Assembly: GCA_019058315.1 (NCBI GenBank)
Contig: JAHPZH010000002.1
Span: 192,001 to 256,000, forward strand
Source: Candidatus Helarchaeota archaeon
Lineage (GTDB): Archaea; Asgardarchaeota; Lokiarchaeia; Helarchaeales; RDOG01
Direction: 5' to 3'
Length of the DNA stretch: 64,000 nt
Shown: in pieces, positions 45,923 to 52,866 of the stretch
Layout: every line of letters starts with the position of its first letter
Numbering within the stretch: the first letter of the stretch is position 1
Position numbers and translations under genes: made by a program
Notes under the pieces: model-generated
What the model saw: the letters and a program-made list of their open reading frames with translations, nothing else
Databases searched by the model: none
What the model was told of the DNA's origin: nothing

Positions 45923-47191
45923 TTAATTGTCTCCTCCTGGACTAATTTCAAATATTATTTCATTTATATCTGGACCAATTTCCAATGTTCTTGTCTTTAA
46001 TTCTATCATCTCACTAGGGCGGACAAATTTCTTTTTAAGTTCTTTCAAGATTGTACCATTTGCTTTTAAACTTATTAAAACATCATTTTCTGGTTTTTTT
46101 ACTCGCATAAAGAAAATAAGTGGTTGAGATAATGATTTTCTATTTATGTGTTGAGGAACAATATAACCGATATTACGTCCAGCTTTGGTCTTAACTAATT
46201 CCTTTTTCTCTTTCAGTTTTTGTTTAATATATTTAGCAGCATTATTTCCAGCATTAATAGCCTCTTGTGTGACATTATCAACCAAATCATGAACTTGAAG
46301 CACATTACCACAAGAAAATATTCCCTCTATTGAAGTTTCGAGATTTTCATCAACAATAGCTCCTCCAGTTACAGGATCCAATGCAACTCCAATTTTATTT
46401 GATAATTCATTTTCTGGGATGAGTCCTACAGATAATAATAATGTATCACATTCAATAATTTCTTCAGTACCTGGAATAGGTTTCCAATGCTCATCGACCT
46501 GGGCAATAGTAACAGCTTCAACTCTATTTTCACCGTGAATTTTTGTAACTGTATGTTCTAATAATAATGGAATATCAAAATCTTCTAAGCATTGAACTCT
46601 ATTTCTTACTAAACCATTTGTATAAGGCATAATTTCAACAACTGCCTTAACTTTGGCACCTTCTAAAGTAAGTCTACGTGCCATAATTAAGCCTATGTCT
46701 CCTGATCCTAGAATAACAATTTCTTTTCCTGGCATATATCCTTCAATATTTACAAAACGCTGAGCTAAGCCCGCTGTATAAACACCAGAAGGACGGTAGC
46801 CTGGGATTCGAATTGCTCCTCGAGTTCTTTCACGACAGCCCATGGCCAGTATAATTGCCTTAGGAATTATTTTAAGAACTCCTTCATCTTTATTAAGAGC
46901 GATTATATGTTTATCTTTGGTAATATCAATGACCATAGTGTTTAATTTTACTGGAATATCCAATTCATGGATCTGATTGATATATCGCTGAGCATACTCT
47001 GGACCAGTTAATTCTTCTTTAAATACATGCAATCCGAATCCATTATGAATACATTGAGGTAAAATACCTCCTAATTCAAAATCTCTTTCAATAATTAGTG
47101 GATTTACTCCTGCTTCTTTTGCAGTAACTGCAGCAGCCAACCCTGCGGGGCCACCACCTATAATTGCAAGGTCTACATCAATTTCAATCAT
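45923..47191 (-). CDS. NAD(P)/FAD-dependent pyridine nucleotide-disulfide oxidoreductase (G3P dehydrogenase partner)
   Basis: GGGPAG, LGGILPQCIHNGFG, GCRER, GSGDIGLIMARRLTLEG, CGNVLQVHDLVD. Confidence 0.9.
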   Translation of the reverse strand: MIEIDVDLAIIGGGPAGLAAAVTAKEAGVNPLIIERDFELGGILPQCIHNGFGLHVFKEELTGPEYAQRYINQIHELDIPVKLNTMVIDITKDKHIIALNKDEGVLKIIPKAIILAMGCRERTRGAIRIPGYRPSGVYTAGLAQRFVNIEGYMPGKEIVILGSGDIGLIMARRLTLEGAKVKAVVEIMPYTNGLVRNRVQCLEDFDIPLLLEHTVTKIHGENRVEAVTIAQVDEHWKPIPGTEEIIECDTLLLSVGLIPENELSNKIGVALDPVTGGAIVDENLETSIEGIFSCGNVLQVHDLVDNVTQEAINAGNNAAKYIKQKLKEKKELVKTKAGRNIGYIVPQHINRKSLSQPLIFFMRVKKPENDVLISLKANGTILKELKKKFVRPSEMIELKTRTLEIGPDINEIIFEISPGGDN

Positions 47192-48642
47192 TTTTTATCC
47201 TCCCATACCGATTTAAACTTAGTTTTACTTACGAATAATTCCGACCCCGGTCCCATCTTTGATACTTTTTCTATAGGAATATCCAATTCTTTGGAGAGGA
47301 TCTTCACTGTTCGAGCAGTACAGAAACCTGCTTGACAACGCCCCATCCCACAACGAGTCCTAAATTTTATCCCATCCAGAGTTGTTGCACCAACTGGTCT
47401 TTTAATTGCATCTATTACCTCAGCTTCAGAAACATGCTCACATCTACAAACTATATTACCGTAATTTTGATCTTTCATTATAAATTCATGCTTCTTTTCA
47501 TTTGGAAAATTAGTAAGGCTTATGGGTCTTTCTCTACGCGGATTAAAAGATTCTTTTTCTAATAATTCTAAGCCAGAATCTCTCAAAATATCAATTACAT
47601 AATCAGCAATTCCTAAAGAAGCAGTTAATCCTGGAGATTGTATTCCTGCTACGTTTATGAACCCTTTTATTTTAGTTTCTTCAATAATAAAATCATTTGT
47701 ATCAGAAACAGCCCTTAAACCAGCAAAATTTGTGATAATTTTTCTTAAATTAATATTAGGAAGAAGTTTTAGACCCCCAGCTATAATTTCTTCTATACCT
47801 TCTGTGGTGGTTGATGTATCTGCTTTATCATCTAAATCAACTGCATTAGGTCCAAAAAACACATGTTTATGTAAAGTTGGAGCAGCTAAAATTCCTTTAC
47901 TTTTTTTTGTGGGTAAAGGAAAGAGAGGACGATTAAGTTTTAATGTTTCCTTATCAAATAGAACATATTCTCCCCTTCTTGGAGTAATTTTAAAATAATC
48001 TAATCCAACCATTTTAGAAATTTTATCCGCATATACTCCTGCTACATTAATAATATAATTAGTATGAAATTCTCCCTCCTTTGTCATTACTTTTTTACTA
48101 GATTCTTTGACTTCTATATTTTCTACTTCTGAATTAAATCTAAATTCTACACCATTCATATTTGCATTTTCAGCTAAAGCAATTGTTAAACCATATGGGG
48201 AAACTATTCCGCCAGTTGACGCATATAACACCCCATTTGCATCATCTGTTAGATTTGGTTCCATTTCTTTAATCTTCTTTTTATCTAAAATTAATTCAGT
48301 TTTTATTCCATTTTTTTCTCCTCTTATTCGTAATTCTTCTAACTGATTTATGCCCGAATCTATTGTTGAGACCACAAAGGTCCCACATCTTCTAAATTCT
48401 ACATTAAGATCTTTGCAAACTTGATCAAATAATGGGTTGCTAATTGTATTAAATTTTGCTTTAAAAGTTCCAGGTTCTGCAGCATAACCAGCATGGACTA
48501 TTCCCGAATTGCCCTTACTTGTCCCAGAACAAACATCCGACGATTTTTCTAGCACTAATGTATTTAAAGAATATTTCGAAATGTTTCTGGCTATTGTGCA
48601 ACCAATCACGCCAGCACCTATTACAATTACATCCCATTTCAA
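47188..48642 (-). CDS. FAD-dependent glycerol-3-phosphate dehydrogenase-like oxidoreductase with BFD-like [2Fe-2S] domain
   Basis: GAGVIG, TSKGNSGIVHAG, FAGLRA, GIQSPGLTAS, VCRCE.V, R.GMGRCQ.GFC. Confidence 0.88.
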   Translation of the reverse strand: MKWDVIVIGAGVIGCTIARNISKYSLNTLVLEKSSDVCSGTSKGNSGIVHAGYAAEPGTFKAKFNTISNPLFDQVCKDLNVEFRRCGTFVVSTIDSGINQLEELRIRGEKNGIKTELILDKKKIKEMEPNLTDDANGVLYASTGGIVSPYGLTIALAENANMNGVEFRFNSEVENIEVKESSKKVMTKEGEFHTNYIINVAGVYADKISKMVGLDYFKITPRRGEYVLFDKETLKLNRPLFPLPTKKSKGILAAPTLHKHVFFGPNAVDLDDKADTSTTTEGIEEIIAGGLKLLPNINLRKIITNFAGLRAVSDTNDFIIEETKIKGFINVAGIQSPGLTASLGIADYVIDILRDSGLELLEKESFNPRRERPISLTNFPNEKKHEFIMKDQNYGNIVCRCEHVSEAEVIDAIKRPVGATTLDGIKFRTRCGMGRCQAGFCTARTVKILSKELDIPIEKVSKMGPGSELFVSKTKFKSVWEDKK

Positions 48643-48984
48643 ATTAATTACCTATTTTAAATAATATCTCATTAAATTCAAATCTAATTTAACGGTAAAA
48701 CATTATAATTATTTATTCTTCATATTAAAGGATTTGTAAATGAGATTGGATGTAAAATATATACATAATTAAAAGAAAATGTAAAACTCTGTTCTTCATT
48801 CTAGTTTTATTTTTTAAAGAAAAAATAATCCAAAATCCAATTTCTAACTTTTTTATTAAAAAATATCTTAATTTGGTAAAACTATATTCATATTACATTT
48901 TTAGATCATTTTATTTATTTGTAGAAGTATTATAATCCAAGATAAAAAAAATCATTAAAATATGGATAATTACTGGTGAATATT

Positions 48985-49398
48985 ATGGATTTCCAAGTAA
49001 CATCTTTAGCAGGTGAAGCTATTTCGGAAATGTCATCTGGTTTGATACAAAAGAATTTAACAGAACACCCAGTGGTTTCAATCTATTTTAAAGGTACAAC
49101 TTCTGCCATATGAGGTACAGGAGGTTCGGATACCGTTCCAGCATATCTTAAATTAACAATTGACGTTGTGTCCCAAGAAGATCTTGAAAAAGAAGAGGAA
49201 AAATTCACACGTCAAGGTGATTACCAAGAAGTTCCAATTTTTACTCAAGATTTAGCTCTGAATTACCTTGTTGATCCTACGATAATTGATGCCAAAAAAT
49301 TCTATCACTTCAGCGAATTATTCATTCCAAACGCACCGGTCTTAATCGAGAATACTTTTTGGAAAGTAGATGAAGTTAAAAAAGGCGGTGGCTGTTAG
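48985..49398 (+). CDS. Predicted selenoprotein, HesB/IscA-like, 137 aa with Sec43 (TGA 49111..49113)
   Basis: GGTGA SD plus ATG 48985; single in-frame TGA in VVSIYFKGTTSAI-U-GTGG continuing into the 49168 ORF; C-terminal GGGC; SECIS directly after the stop. Confidence 0.8.
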
Positions 49399-49399
49399 A

Positions 49400-49471
49400 A
49401 AGGTCGATGGATGAAATTTTTTTGTAAATATTAGAAAAAAATTGACACAGTTTATGCAAACTGCCGACCTT
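49400..49471 (+). promoter_or_regulatory. Eukaryote-type SECIS element in 3' UTR
   Basis: Helix I AAGGTCG/CGACCTT; ATGA(49411)...TGAC(49443) core; helix II ATTTTTTT/AAAAAAAT; apical AAA 11 nt after ATGA. Confidence 0.78.
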
Positions 49472-49629
49472 AACTTACTTTTCTTTTAATTAAAATTTTA
49501 TTTCTAAATTTTATTAACTATTATACCCAACTTAGTAAAAAAGCAAAATAATAGAATATTTGAATTTTATTTTGTGAAATACTAATTTGAAAATCTAATT
49601 TTAATTTATAATTTAAGGAATAAACAAAA

Positions 49630-51168
49630 ATGGCTCAAGATCTCGTATGTGTTATTGATGCTGGAACAACTGGTTTAAGAACAATGATTTTTGATAGTAA
49701 TGGAAACGAAATTGATAGAGCTTATCAAGAATACAAAAGTTATTTTCCAAAACCTGCTTGGGTAGAACAAGATGCAAATGATTGGTGGCAAGCGGTTTGT
49801 AACACATCAAATAAGGTGCTAAAAAAAATCAATACCTCTGATATTGTTGGAATAAGCGTTACAAACCAAAGAGAGACAATTGTTCCAGTAGATGAAGCCG
49901 GAAATCCTTTAAGAAAAGCTTTGGTTTGGCAAGATCGTCGAACTATACCTGAGTGTAATATTATTCGAGAAGTTATAGGGGAAGATGAAATATATAGGAT
50001 TACTGGATTAACAATAGACCCATATTTTTCATCATCCAAGATTATTCATATAAAAAATCAACAACCAGATATCTTTTCAAAGACCTCCAAATTCCTTCTT
50101 GTCCATGATTATATTGAAATGAAATTAAGCGGAAAATTTGTGACTGATTGGTCAAATGCCTCTAGGACTATGTTATTTGATATTGAAAAGCACGAATGGA
50201 GCAAAAAAATTTGTGATAAATTAGAGATACCTATTGAAAAGATGCCCCAAACGTATCCTTCTGGGGAGATCATTGGCGAAATCACAAAAATCGCTGCTAA
50301 ACAAACGGGATTCATAGAAGGAACTCCAATAATAAGCGGTGGGGGAGATCAACAATTAGGTGCATTAGGTTTAGGTGTTATTAAATCTGGACAAATATCT
50401 TGTACAACTGGAACAGGGACGTTTATATTAGCCTTTTTAAATCAACCACTACGTGATCCTCAAAAAAGAGTTCTTTGTAGCTGTCATGCAGTCCCTAATA
50501 CATGGGTTATGGAAGCCAGCATATTCACTACTGGTTCGGTTTATAGATGGTTTCGTGATCAATTCAGTCAATATGAAAAAGACCTTGCTAAACGACAAAA
50601 TAAAGATCCTTATGAACTTCTAAATGAAGAAGCTATAAAGTCTCCCGTAGGTTCTAATGGAATCATTTTAATACCTCATTTTGCAGGAGCTGGGGCACCA
50701 TATTGGAATCCTTATAGCCGTGGTATTATTGCAGGGCTTGCCCTTGGACATACTAGAAATGATCTAATAAGAGCCATTATGGAAAGTATATGCTTTGAAA
50801 TTAGAAAAAATATTGATGTTATGAGACAATTAAATATTCAGGTAAATGAGATCCGGTTAACTGGAGGAATGACTAGGAGCAATACATTTAATGAAATACA
50901 AGCCGATGTTTACGGGATTCCTGTATTACATAGCAAGACTGAAGAAGCAACTGCACTAGGAGCCGCGATGTTAATTTTAAAGGGGACTAAAATTTATAAG
51001 AACTATGACGAAATCGCAAAAAAAGTAGTTAAAATTAGCGCAACCAAAAAACCTAATAATATAAATCATAAAAAATATTCAAAAATCTTCGAAATATCGA
51101 AAAAAATTTATGAAATATTCCAAACCAATAATTTATACAAGGATTTTTATGATATGGGGGATTATTAA
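49630..51168 (+). CDS. FGGY-family carbohydrate kinase (glycerol kinase/xylulokinase-like)
   Basis: IDAGTTG.R, WVEQD, TNQRET, WQDRR, TDWSNASRTMLFD, GDQQ, GTGTF, GAPYW, TALGAA. Confidence 0.92.
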   Translation: MAQDLVCVIDAGTTGLRTMIFDSNGNEIDRAYQEYKSYFPKPAWVEQDANDWWQAVCNTSNKVLKKINTSDIVGISVTNQRETIVPVDEAGNPLRKALVWQDRRTIPECNIIREVIGEDEIYRITGLTIDPYFSSSKIIHIKNQQPDIFSKTSKFLLVHDYIEMKLSGKFVTDWSNASRTMLFDIEKHEWSKKICDKLEIPIEKMPQTYPSGEIIGEITKIAAKQTGFIEGTPIISGGGDQQLGALGLGVIKSGQISCTTGTGTFILAFLNQPLRDPQKRVLCSCHAVPNTWVMEASIFTTGSVYRWFRDQFSQYEKDLAKRQNKDPYELLNEEAIKSPVGSNGIILIPHFAGAGAPYWNPYSRGIIAGLALGHTRNDLIRAIMESICFEIRKNIDVMRQLNIQVNEIRLTGGMTRSNTFNEIQADVYGIPVLHSKTEEATALGAAMLILKGTKIYKNYDEIAKKVVKISATKKPNNINHKKYSKIFEISKKIYEIFQTNNLYKDFYDMGDY

Positions 51169-51198: not shown

Positions 51199-52149
51199 TT
51201 GAGCCAAAAATGGTTTAAGATTCTGTTTTTAGGTCTTGATAATGCCGGGAAGACTTCATTTCTACTTTCATTGGAGAATAAATATAGTCATTTACATTCT
51301 TTAAGACCAACTAAAGGACTTTATAAGTACGAATATAAAATACTCGGTTTTGAAATCAATCTCCTCGATTTTGGAGGACAAAAGATATATAGAGAGGAGT
51401 TTTTTAAAAAACCAGAAAATTATATTGGAACTGACTTACTATTCTTCGTTATTGACATTCAAGATAGAAGAAGATTTGCAGAAAATGGGGAATTTTTTGA
51501 AAAATTACTTGATGAATTTGAAACTAATGATGTTAAACCTAATATAATTATCTGTTTTCATAAGCTTGATCCCGACCTTATGACAGATCCCGAATCTTAT
51601 ATTCATGATAATATTCAAATCGCAGAAAGATTATTTAAATCTAAAAGTAACGGACGGGAATTGGAATTTTTTCAAACAACTATTTACGATTATTCAAGTT
51701 TGGCTCGAGCTTTTTCTTCAGGGTTATTGAAAATCATTAAAGATTTTAAAAAAGTAACCGAAACTATCTTTGCTGATTTTATGAACAAAACTAATGCAAA
51801 TGGTGTCTGTCTTCTTAGTGAAAATGCTCTTATTTTATCAGATCTCTATGATAAAAAGTCTGAAGCCCAAGAAATTATCGAAATTATTGGTACAAATATG
51901 GCCCAAATGTCTCAAAAACTAATAGAATATAATCATGGGATACCAGAATCTATTGAAATAAAAATGAAAGGGTGGTCTTTTTTTAGAACTTTTGAACTCG
52001 AGGATAAGGACGTAAAAGAGGGGGGTATGAAGAGATTTTACCTAATAATTTATTCAGAGAATCCTAAAAATTTTGATAAAATAAATGAATTATTAACTAA
52101 TTTTACTCTAACAGTTGCAAATACTTTGAAAAATTTTCTAAAGGAGTAA
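51199..52149 (+). CDS. Arf/Rag-like small GTPase with C-terminal roadblock/longin-like domain
   Basis: KILFLGLDNAGKTS, PT.G, DFGGQ..YR, HKLD, TTI; C-terminal alpha/beta domain. Confidence 0.85.
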   Translation: MSQKWFKILFLGLDNAGKTSFLLSLENKYSHLHSLRPTKGLYKYEYKILGFEINLLDFGGQKIYREEFFKKPENYIGTDLLFFVIDIQDRRRFAENGEFFEKLLDEFETNDVKPNIIICFHKLDPDLMTDPESYIHDNIQIAERLFKSKSNGRELEFFQTTIYDYSSLARAFSSGLLKIIKDFKKVTETIFADFMNKTNANGVCLLSENALILSDLYDKKSEAQEIIEIIGTNMAQMSQKLIEYNHGIPESIEIKMKGWSFFRTFELEDKDVKEGGMKRFYLIIYSENPKNFDKINELLTNFTLTVANTLKNFLKE

Positions 52150-52152
52150 AAA

Positions 52153-52866
52153 TTGGATTTTCCTAAAATTCGAATTCTTTTATTTCAACGTGGAATGTAT
52201 GGAGAAAGGGTAGAAGAAACAATTAATAAATATGGGAAAAAATTACAAATATCCAAAATTTTTAAAATACCTAAAGAGCTACCAGATATTATTGAGGAAC
52301 CAGAAACCTATATTCCTGATGAAATATTCAAAAATATTGATTTAATTATTTCTTATTCTCTACATGCAGATTTATCACAATATATAGTAGAAAAAGCAAA
52401 AAATAACGGTATTAAAGTAGTGATTATGCCTGGAGAAGACCCATCCTTTAGTCAATTGGGGGCTAGAAGACAACTTTTTGAAATTGCAGGAGACGAAGTT
52501 AATATTTTTGGTCCTGAAGTTACATGTGCTTTAAAACCAGTACAAGATAATGAAATTATTTCACTATTTTGTTCTGAATTAGGACAACCAGAATTTAAAA
52601 TAGAAACTAAAGACGGAAAAATTAGTAAAGTTGAAGTAATTCGGGGGGCTCCATGTGGTGCAACGTGGTATGTTGCAAAGGAGATTATAGGAGAATCGAT
52701 CAAAGAAGCTCCTAGAAAAGCAGCATTACTTACACAATATTATTGCCGAGCGTCAAGAGGATATGATATTATCGGAGGGGAGGGAAAAATTCATAAAGCT
52801 GGAAAAATTACTATGAAAGCATTTGAGAAAGCAATTGAAGAAACATTGAATAATAAAAAAGATTAA
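52153..52866 (+). CDS. DUF166 family protein
   Basis: G.YGER, LP.IIEEPE.Y.P, LH.DL, P..TC.L, G.PEF, V.V.RGAPCGATW, C.AS, IH.AG. Confidence 0.85.
   Translation: MDFPKIRILLFQRGMYGERVEETINKYGKKLQISKIFKIPKELPDIIEEPETYIPDEIFKNIDLIISYSLHADLSQYIVEKAKNNGIKVVIMPGEDPSFSQLGARRQLFEIAGDEVNIFGPEVTCALKPVQDNEIISLFCSELGQPEFKIETKDGKISKVEVIRGAPCGATWYVAKEIIGESIKEAPRKAALLTQYYCRASRGYDIIGGEGKIHKAGKITMKAFEKAIEETLNNKKD

Follow-up and report, generated by a model that had tools for sequence, protein, structure and literature searches.

A predicted IscA/HesB-fold selenoprotein gene followed by a Loki-type SECIS element in a Candidatus Helarchaeota archaeon

Within a 64,000-nucleotide stretch of DNA from a Candidatus Helarchaeota archaeon (positions 192,001 to 256,000 of contig JAHPZH010000002.1, assembly GCA_019058315.1; hereafter the window, G000:C5:192001-256000 in our numbering of the 5.8-Mb, 30% G+C genome G000), positions 48985-49398 of the forward strand very probably form one gene for a 137-residue selenoprotein. 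We picture its product as a protein with the IscA/HesB fold, made with the help of a Loki-type selenocysteine insertion sequence (SECIS) element and acting in a manner that resembles an A-type carrier of iron-sulfur (Fe-S) clusters. The window gene, which has so far escaped annotation, is almost certainly a real selenoprotein gene.

An in-frame TGA codon within an otherwise open reading frame

Between the ATG at 48985 and the TAG at 49396-49398, the sole in-frame stop codon is a TGA at codon 43, and the product of reading through it is a protein of 137 residues whose C-terminus, KKGGGC, directly precedes the TAG. Translation thus bears out the frame proposed in an earlier model-made, first-pass annotation of the window. 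That annotation had also anticipated that standard pipelines would call only a fragment, and this is the case: gene calling with translation table 11 gives only a 76-residue open reading frame (ORF) at the gene, starting with GTG (49168-49398), and the public-database entry P0009 is the same fragment. Reads of four DNA runs gave the likely source contig and short partial contigs from relatives over 49108-49419, with the same picture of the TGA codon as that obtained from the orthologs described below. The features of the gene and its flanks are as follows.

48985-49398, + strand: coding sequence of the predicted 137-residue IscA/HesB-fold selenoprotein, TAG stop included (from translation, orthologs, an AlphaFold2 model and structural matches)
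49111-49113, + strand: UGA codon 43, predicted to encode selenocysteine (Sec) (from the invariant Sec/Cys column of family alignment A2 and the placement of this column on an IscA Cys by hhalign)
49393-49395, + strand: codon for Cys137 at the C-terminus, which probably pairs with Sec43
48975-48979, + strand: GGTGA ribosome-binding motif, 5 nucleotides (nt) ahead of the ATG at 48985, in a ACTGGTGA context that is also present in the ortholog L053
48902-48921, + strand: upstream A/T-rich block with a TTTATTTATT run, its 20 nt identical to the contig of ortholog L053
49478-49487, + strand: T-rich tract CTTTTCTTTT 3' of the SECIS element, a candidate archaeal transcription stop judging by its sequence

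In an ungapped comparison with L053, the 100 nt ahead of the ATG are 71% identical overall, and the block at 48902-48921 is 100% identical. This block is a possible archaeal promoter of the B recognition element (BRE)/TATA type.

A family with TGA or Cys at its only invariant column

Used by itself as a query against 400 genomes of the phylum, the window protein finds one weak relative, and against a library of genome contigs it finds no relative. More relatives come into view with a family profile built from four sequences, namely the window protein, two paralogs from the same genome and one further relative. This profile has matches in 19 of the 400 phylum genomes, mostly with exactly one TGA within the match, and retrieves 18 proteins from a library of 1.84 billion proteins. 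Two orthologs, each from a separate metagenome assembly, are 77% (L053) and 54% (L054) identical to the window protein, and both have a TGA at the same codon, protein similarity ahead of and behind this codon, and a Cys at the end. The identities between the window protein and L053 lie on both sides of the TGA codon, with 31 of 42 residues identical upstream and 67 of 85 downstream.

We aligned 23 family members (alignment A2) and found that the N-terminal strand and helix align across the whole family and that the Sec/Cys column is the sole invariant one, occupied by TGA in 16 members and by Cys in seven. At the level of sequence, this is the classical Sec/Cys signature. The residues that follow Sec or Cys vary: the family has UG, US or UC at this place, the Cys forms read C[SG][PV]M, and the window protein reads U-G-T-G. 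Five database proteins have Trp at the site; since all five translate only with TGA read as Trp, being flagged with_TGA=W on their encoding contigs, the Trp versions are artefacts of translation with table 4. Both expectations that the first-pass annotation had attached to a genuine Sec codon, that homologs have TGA or Cys opposite codon 43 and that the protein is conserved upstream of it, agree with these alignments.

The family has three paralogs in this genome, and predicted Sec forms as well as Cys forms across Lokiarchaeia. Paralog 1 (G000:C3:786506-786862, + strand, corresponding to L019:1507-1866) has 119 residues, a SIGUGG motif and a YGSC end; paralog 2 (G000:C2:186054-186365, - strand, corresponding to L020:1552-1875) has 107 residues and an FSUCTT motif and is devoid of a C-terminal Cys. 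Both have one TGA at the homologous position and a Loki-type SECIS element 13-15 nt past the stop codon, and neither figures in the first-pass annotation. An unrooted tree places the window gene together with its two orthologs in a clade on a long branch (support 100/98); the members of this clade are distinguished by an insert of 9 residues after Sec and by a longer tail. Five Cys forms make up another clade (support 99/97). Since the tree has no root, the direction of change between Cys and Sec is not set by it.

A Loki-type SECIS element directly past the stop codon

The first-pass annotation had claimed that the gene is followed by a eukaryote-like SECIS element in its 3' untranslated region (UTR). 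We find such an element, beginning 1 nt past the TAG of the window gene, with the following parts.

49400-49471, + strand: whole Loki-type SECIS element, resembling the type I SECIS of eukaryotes (eSECIS) and closed by a helix I of 7 base pairs (bp), 49400-49406 with 49465-49471
49411-49445, + strand: SECIS core, consisting of AUGA (49411-49414), the 9-bp helix II (49415-49423 with 49435-49443), the apical loop listed next and GA (49444-49445)
49424-49434, + strand: 11-nt apical loop GUAAAUAUUAG, which starts with GUAAA and ends with AG
49448-49463, + strand: 6-bp mini-hairpin CAGUUU-AUGC-AAACUG within the 3' half of the internal loop

The sequence at 49400-49471 folds with -17.7 kcal/mol (z = -3.8), and none of 200 shuffled sequences folds as well. 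Published rules for lokiSECIS elements call for AUGA, a 9-bp stem, an 11-nt loop that starts A-rich and has a final G, usually after A, and then GA (PMC4989117), and the window element fits every one of them. With the published elements (PMC4989117; PMC11227280) it shares AUGA, the stem of 9 bp, the 11-nt loop with AG at its end, GA, and a place just past a stop codon. Unlike them, it has a loop that starts with GUAAA instead of AAAAA, and its gene family is in neither paper's list. The GUAAA start fits the G[U/G]AAA variant that has been reported from other clades (PMC11227280).

A composite descriptor that joins the loop rules to the mini-hairpin has four sites in the 5.8-Mb genome, the window among them, and none in five Markov-2 random genomes. 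We also built a covariance model, R1, from 12 elements, leaving out the window element and those of its two orthologs. The stem of this training set covaries strongly, pairing in 92.6% of cells versus 52% in shuffles, and none of 500 shuffles reaches 92.6%. R1 gives the window element 40.5 bits (E 3.6e-5 genome-wide), which makes it the best match outside the training set and puts it level with the training members. The next match outside the training set (G000:C11:830428-830470, + strand; 32.1 bits, E 0.004) is probably the SECIS element of another selenoprotein gene. Across the three orthologs, 97% of the SECIS cells pair, column identity is 91% and exceeds that of the coding sequence, and there are three compensatory pairs. 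Helix II has two of them (A-U replaced by C-G, and U-A replaced by C-G), and the third is in the mini-hairpin, where L053 has undergone a change from A-U to G-C. The agreement with the lokiSECIS rules, the R1 score and these compensatory changes together uphold the claim of a eukaryote-like element.

A strict pattern scan of the genome finds elements behind an hdrA-like gene, an mvhD/FlpD gene, a small membrane-protein gene, an unassigned gene, the window gene and its two paralogs. The mini-hairpin stands at this same place in 16 of the 19 Loki-type SECIS elements examined, those behind hdrA, mvhD and other selenoprotein genes included, versus 6.6% of random genome positions. The main texts of PMC4989117 and PMC11227280 contain no description of it, and it is absent from the first-pass annotation. 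The SECIS region of SelD (G000:C11, just below 696903, - strand, in L005) has a small hairpin with a GCA loop ahead of the closing helix, so the mini-hairpin seems to be common to both SECIS types in this genome.

Some relatives depart from this architecture. In the elements of family members from one related genus, at L017:1698-1775 (genome G127) and in the 3' UTR of L026 (genome G126), helix I, the A-rich loop, the mini-hairpin and a stem of 9-10 bp are all retained, and AAGA...UC and AAAA...AA stand in place of the AUGA/GA core; these elements may represent a core-less SECIS variant, or decay. In a USGYFC-type member (L027:1846-1851, genome G277), the terminal UGA of the coding sequence is also the UGA of the SECIS AUGA core, so that stop codon and core overlap. 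A textbook Loki-type SECIS element, a training member that scores 44.7 bits on R1, lies behind a small hydrophobic ORF with the motif KHVUPLC and further in-frame TGA codons (L021:1644-1943, - strand, at about G000:C10 42157, - strand); this ORF looks like a membrane selenoprotein.

Selenocysteine machinery and genetic code

The genes required for a Sec reading of codon 43 had been named as a check on it, and the genome has them. SelB (287 bits, above the cut-off of TIGR00475), SepSecS (481.8 bits) and tRNA-Sec (63.5 bits, adjoining SepSecS) form a tight cluster at G000:C5:124363-127228, about 65 kb ahead of the window start on the same contig. A gene that scores 170 bits against a curated PSTK cut-off of 290 is hence called PSTK-like only, and the SelD gene holds an in-frame TGA itself (HGUSCK). 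The fourth domain of eEFSec (PF21131) had no match in any genome searched, controls included, and so carries no information here. TGA is an ordinary stop codon throughout the genome, terminating 321 of 2196 long ORFs (15%), which rules out a genome-wide reassignment of TGA.

These genes and the element suggest how the protein would be made. A ribosome that meets the UGA at codon 43 would be served by the Loki-type SECIS element of the 3' UTR, which lies some 300 nt further on and would recruit archaeal SelB with Sec-tRNA(Sec); Sec would then be inserted and translation would go on to the TAG.

Similarity of the predicted fold to IscA, SufA and HesB

An AlphaFold2 model computed on alignment A2 has a mean predicted local distance difference test score (pLDDT) of 84.5 and a predicted template modelling score (pTM) of 0.77, and the modelled fold of the window protein is that of IscA/HesB, the A-type Fe-S carriers. 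The N-terminal 42 residues, which lie upstream of the TGA codon, are needed for the predicted fold. The ten best matches of the model in a Foldseek search of the PDB are all of IscA/SufA/HesB type. With VIA-align, 91-102 residues align with IscA/SufA structures at Z 8.0-8.3 (95 of 97 residues in the case of 1r94), and the next scores are at Z 2.2.

We then compared A2 by hhalign with alignment A6, made up of true members of PF01521 that come from other lineages of Asgard archaea (three of its members score 34-58 bits on Pfam). The two alignments match at 95.5% probability (E 1.5e-8), with the Sec/Cys column opposite the GGC[SG]G Cys. This Cys is the first cluster ligand of IscA, so that Sec43 is its equivalent in the hhalign comparison. 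The HesB/IscA-like fold named in the first-pass annotation is therefore supported by the model, the structural matches and the profile-profile comparison alike. Sub-threshold matches to PF01521 occur in 15 of the 23 family members (best E 7e-6), no other family recurs, and one family member attains the cut-off of 26.3 bits in a six-frame search. Neither a PDB-sequence profile search nor phmmer with one member found IscA, and the relation to IscA is visible only by comparison of folds and of profiles with profiles.

Like IscA and SufA (PF01521; PDB 1r94, 1x0g and 2d2a), the window protein has this fold, the predicted Sec43 at the place of the first ligand Cys and the second ligand region on a flexible C-terminal tail. 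Unlike them, it has Sec for Cys and a single C-terminal Cys for CxC, and it is 9-17% identical to the solved structures. The ligand pattern C-x(n)-C-x-C is thus altered at both ends, its first Cys appearing as Sec and its C-terminal CxC being cut to the single Cys137.

A clade separate from the curated HesB-like selenoprotein families

The first-pass annotation had taken the protein for an Asgard member of the HesB-like selenoprotein family of Methanococcales. The superfamily assignment stands; the family membership does not, given that the window protein has no match to TIGR01911 (HesB_rel_seleno, cut-off 66.35 bits) and no UxGP motif. The best score of any family member on TIGR01911 is 14.9 bits, from a paralog, and the cut-off is reached in none of 400 Asgard genomes; a Methanocaldococcus control (M. 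jannaschii) scores above it. The two other curated models of HesB-like (seleno)proteins, NF041239 and NF038090, likewise have cut-offs above all scores of the window family. NF041239 (Moor_selen_rel, cut-off 40 bits) has sub-threshold matches in five of the 23 members, the best at 26.3 bits, and the best score on NF038090 (IscA_HesB_Se, cut-off 85 bits) is 16.2 bits, from another family member; the window protein and its orthologs match neither model. UxGP is the published motif of HesB-like selenoproteins (PMC13188914, Table 1), and the window protein has U-G-T-G instead. Since all three cut-offs exceed the scores of the family and UxGP is absent, we consider the family to be a divergent clade of its own within the IscA/HesB superfamily.

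Like the TIGR01911 proteins of Methanococcales and anaerobic bacteria, the window protein is a small, single IscA/HesB domain with one Sec in its N-terminal half and with Cys homologs. Unlike them, it is longer, with 9 residues inserted after Sec and with a tail at the C-terminus that has a final Cys, and its gene uses a eukaryote-like SECIS element and not one of the euryarchaeal GAA_A type. A HesB-like selenoprotein has been labelled with 75Se in Methanococcus maripaludis, with no function assigned to it (PMC11097638).

A survey of more than 400 Asgard genomes published in 2024 found seven Asgard selenoprotein families by homology to known ones (PMC11227280). An Asgard selenoprotein of IscA/HesB type is unlisted there and in a 2016 paper (PMC4989117), a 2021 paper on Asgard recoding (PMC9723677) and a 2026 review (PMC13188914), and a further full-text search also found none. 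The window family, with its IscA fold, is an eighth Asgard selenoprotein family beside these seven. Its absence from the published lists, even with three paralogs in this genome, indicates that homology-driven surveys miss divergent families. Asgard archaea are a reference point for the origin of the eukaryotic Sec system, and new, independent Loki-type SECIS elements that covary and have a conserved mini-hairpin help to define the target of the archaeal SECIS-binding factor. The family also provides a Sec/Cys pair that occurs in nature where an A-type carrier fold has its ligand, and so a direct handle on the role of HesB-like selenoproteins, those of Methanococcus included.

Partner cysteine and possible functions

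The proposal of a pair made up of Sec and a C-terminal Cys fits the window protein, which has the predicted Sec43 and Cys137, and much of the family, in which a Cys lies at the C-terminus or close to it in 14 of the 23 rows of A2. Among the nine remaining rows, eight have a Cys within 1-5 residues of the Sec/Cys column. Five of these have it adjacent to the column (UC, GCC), and in the others its position is U+2 or U+5 (CGC, USGxxC), as in L033, where the partner Cys is at U+5 (USGYYC). In 21 related genomes, the PF01521 matches G125:C333, G127:C7 and G128:C157 are members of the family, and four other matches were not inspected. We favor a role like that of an A-type carrier, with Sec43 and Cys137 most likely serving as a ligand or redox pair, because nearly all members pair Sec or Cys with a second Cys and because the PF01521 matches that could be checked in relatives are the family itself. 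In such a protein, the loop between beta2 and beta3 would hold Sec43 where IscA has its first cluster-ligand Cys, and Cys137 would lie on the flexible C-terminal tail, at the place of the IscA CxC. Sec43 and Cys137, probably contributed by two subunits, could then act as ligands for iron, for an Fe-S cluster or for some other soft metal and pass it on. A stronger form of this proposal, which we regard as rather unlikely, is that in the Lokiarchaeal lineages searched this family does the work of the A-type carrier for Fe-S clusters or metal, with Sec as ligand in place of the first Cys of IscA and with the mini-hairpin of the SECIS element perhaps a second protein-binding site.

Several observations weigh against a selenoprotein of IscA type with a carrier-like role. 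The window protein reaches no more than 13 bits against PF01521 (E 0.12; gathering cut-off 26.3) and matches no NCBIfam model, and the 42 codons 5' of the TGA have a weaker third-position bias than the part downstream. A single Cys137 takes the place of the CxC of IscA. The model is weak at the Sec loop (residues 40-52) and over the last nine residues, where the tail has a pLDDT below 50 and is predicted to be disordered; since both regions are of low confidence, the model does not fix the geometry of Sec43 and Cys137. No operon or neighborhood is conserved across 10 family loci. Finally, the partner Cys moves between subfamilies (C-terminal, vicinal UC, UxxxxC), which suits a redox resolving Cys at least as well as a fixed cluster site.

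Alternative explanations

The principal alternative accepts the same selenoprotein and differs in what it does. Sec43 would attack a disulfide, persulfide, peroxide or metal-thiolate and Cys137 would resolve the resulting selenenylsulfide, with no Fe-S cluster involved. A partner Cys that is kept across a family and yet shifts its place is typical of a resolving Cys, the majority of selenoproteins known so far belong to the thiol-type oxidoreductases (PMC13188914), and regulators of the HxlR type adjoin two family members. We regard a redox role as a tangible possibility, short of probable: the fold and the position of Sec match the cluster-ligand Cys of A-type carriers, the protein has neither a thioredoxin-like fold nor a motif of CxxC type, and no other IscA-type protein is found among the inspected PF01521 matches of the 21 related genomes, four matches being uninspected.

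The remaining alternatives would deny that the window holds a selenoprotein gene. It is very improbable that the gene is a decaying pseudogene, with the TGA a nonsense mutation, a fragment or nothing as its product and the hairpin there by chance or for an unrelated reason. Such decay would fit the 76-residue fragment that is all standard gene calling yields, and a relative (L026, genome G126) does have an additional internal TAA in its gene. Against it, 16 sequences, drawn from many different genomes and samples, share the TGA at one alignment column, and the other seven have Cys there; the SECIS element surpasses the coding sequence in conservation and has compensatory changes; and a full-length fold that requires the N-terminal 42 residues is predicted with confidence. 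These points already largely refute the pseudogene reading. Decoding of the TGA as Trp or another standard residue, whether by recoding like that of codes 4 and 25 or by near-cognate read-through, is extremely improbable. The Trp of the five database proteins would speak for it, but it stems from the caller's choice of table; moreover, TGA terminates 15% of long ORFs, natural homologs without TGA have Cys and never Trp, and a dedicated SECIS element and tRNA-Sec are present. That the hairpin is another kink-turn RNA, such as a C/D-box small RNA, or a terminator is likewise very unlikely. Rfam gives sub-threshold matches to a C/D small nucleolar RNA (21.1 bits versus a gathering cut-off of 45) and to Y RNA at 49398-49487, and T-rich tracts lie 3' of the element. 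However, a proper D box (CUGA) is missing from the 3' end, the score on the Loki SECIS model equals those of training members, the lineage-specific mini-hairpin is shared with elements behind hdrA, mvhD and other selenoprotein genes, and the element lies 1 nt past the stop codon of a gene that contains a TGA. The only Rfam matches were sub-threshold ones to snoR31, Y RNA, KRAS_3UTR and OmrA-B; since no SECIS family matched, the Rfam SECIS models evidently have no coverage of Loki-type elements.

Gene neighborhood

The window gene stands alone between a pair of dehydrogenase genes and a kinase gene. On one side are a gene for a Pyr_redox_2 protein (45923-47191, - strand) and a gene for a dehydrogenase with DAO and BFD [2Fe-2S] domains (47188-48642, - strand), and on the other side is a gene for an FGGY kinase (49630-51168, + strand). 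The domains found at 45923-48642 and at 49630-51168 match what had been said of the neighbors, an Fe-S dehydrogenase operon and an FGGY kinase. Just past the kinase gene lie a gene for a Gtr1/RagA-Arf-type small GTPase (51199-52149, + strand), which is a eukaryote-signature protein of Asgard archaea, and a DUF166 gene (52153-52866, + strand). Elsewhere in the family, the USGxxC members L027 (genome G277) and L033 (genome G165) adjoin genes for P-type cation ATPases (Cation_ATPase_N and E1-E2_ATPase domains), on both sides in G165, and these neighbors may hint at a link with metal or ion handling.

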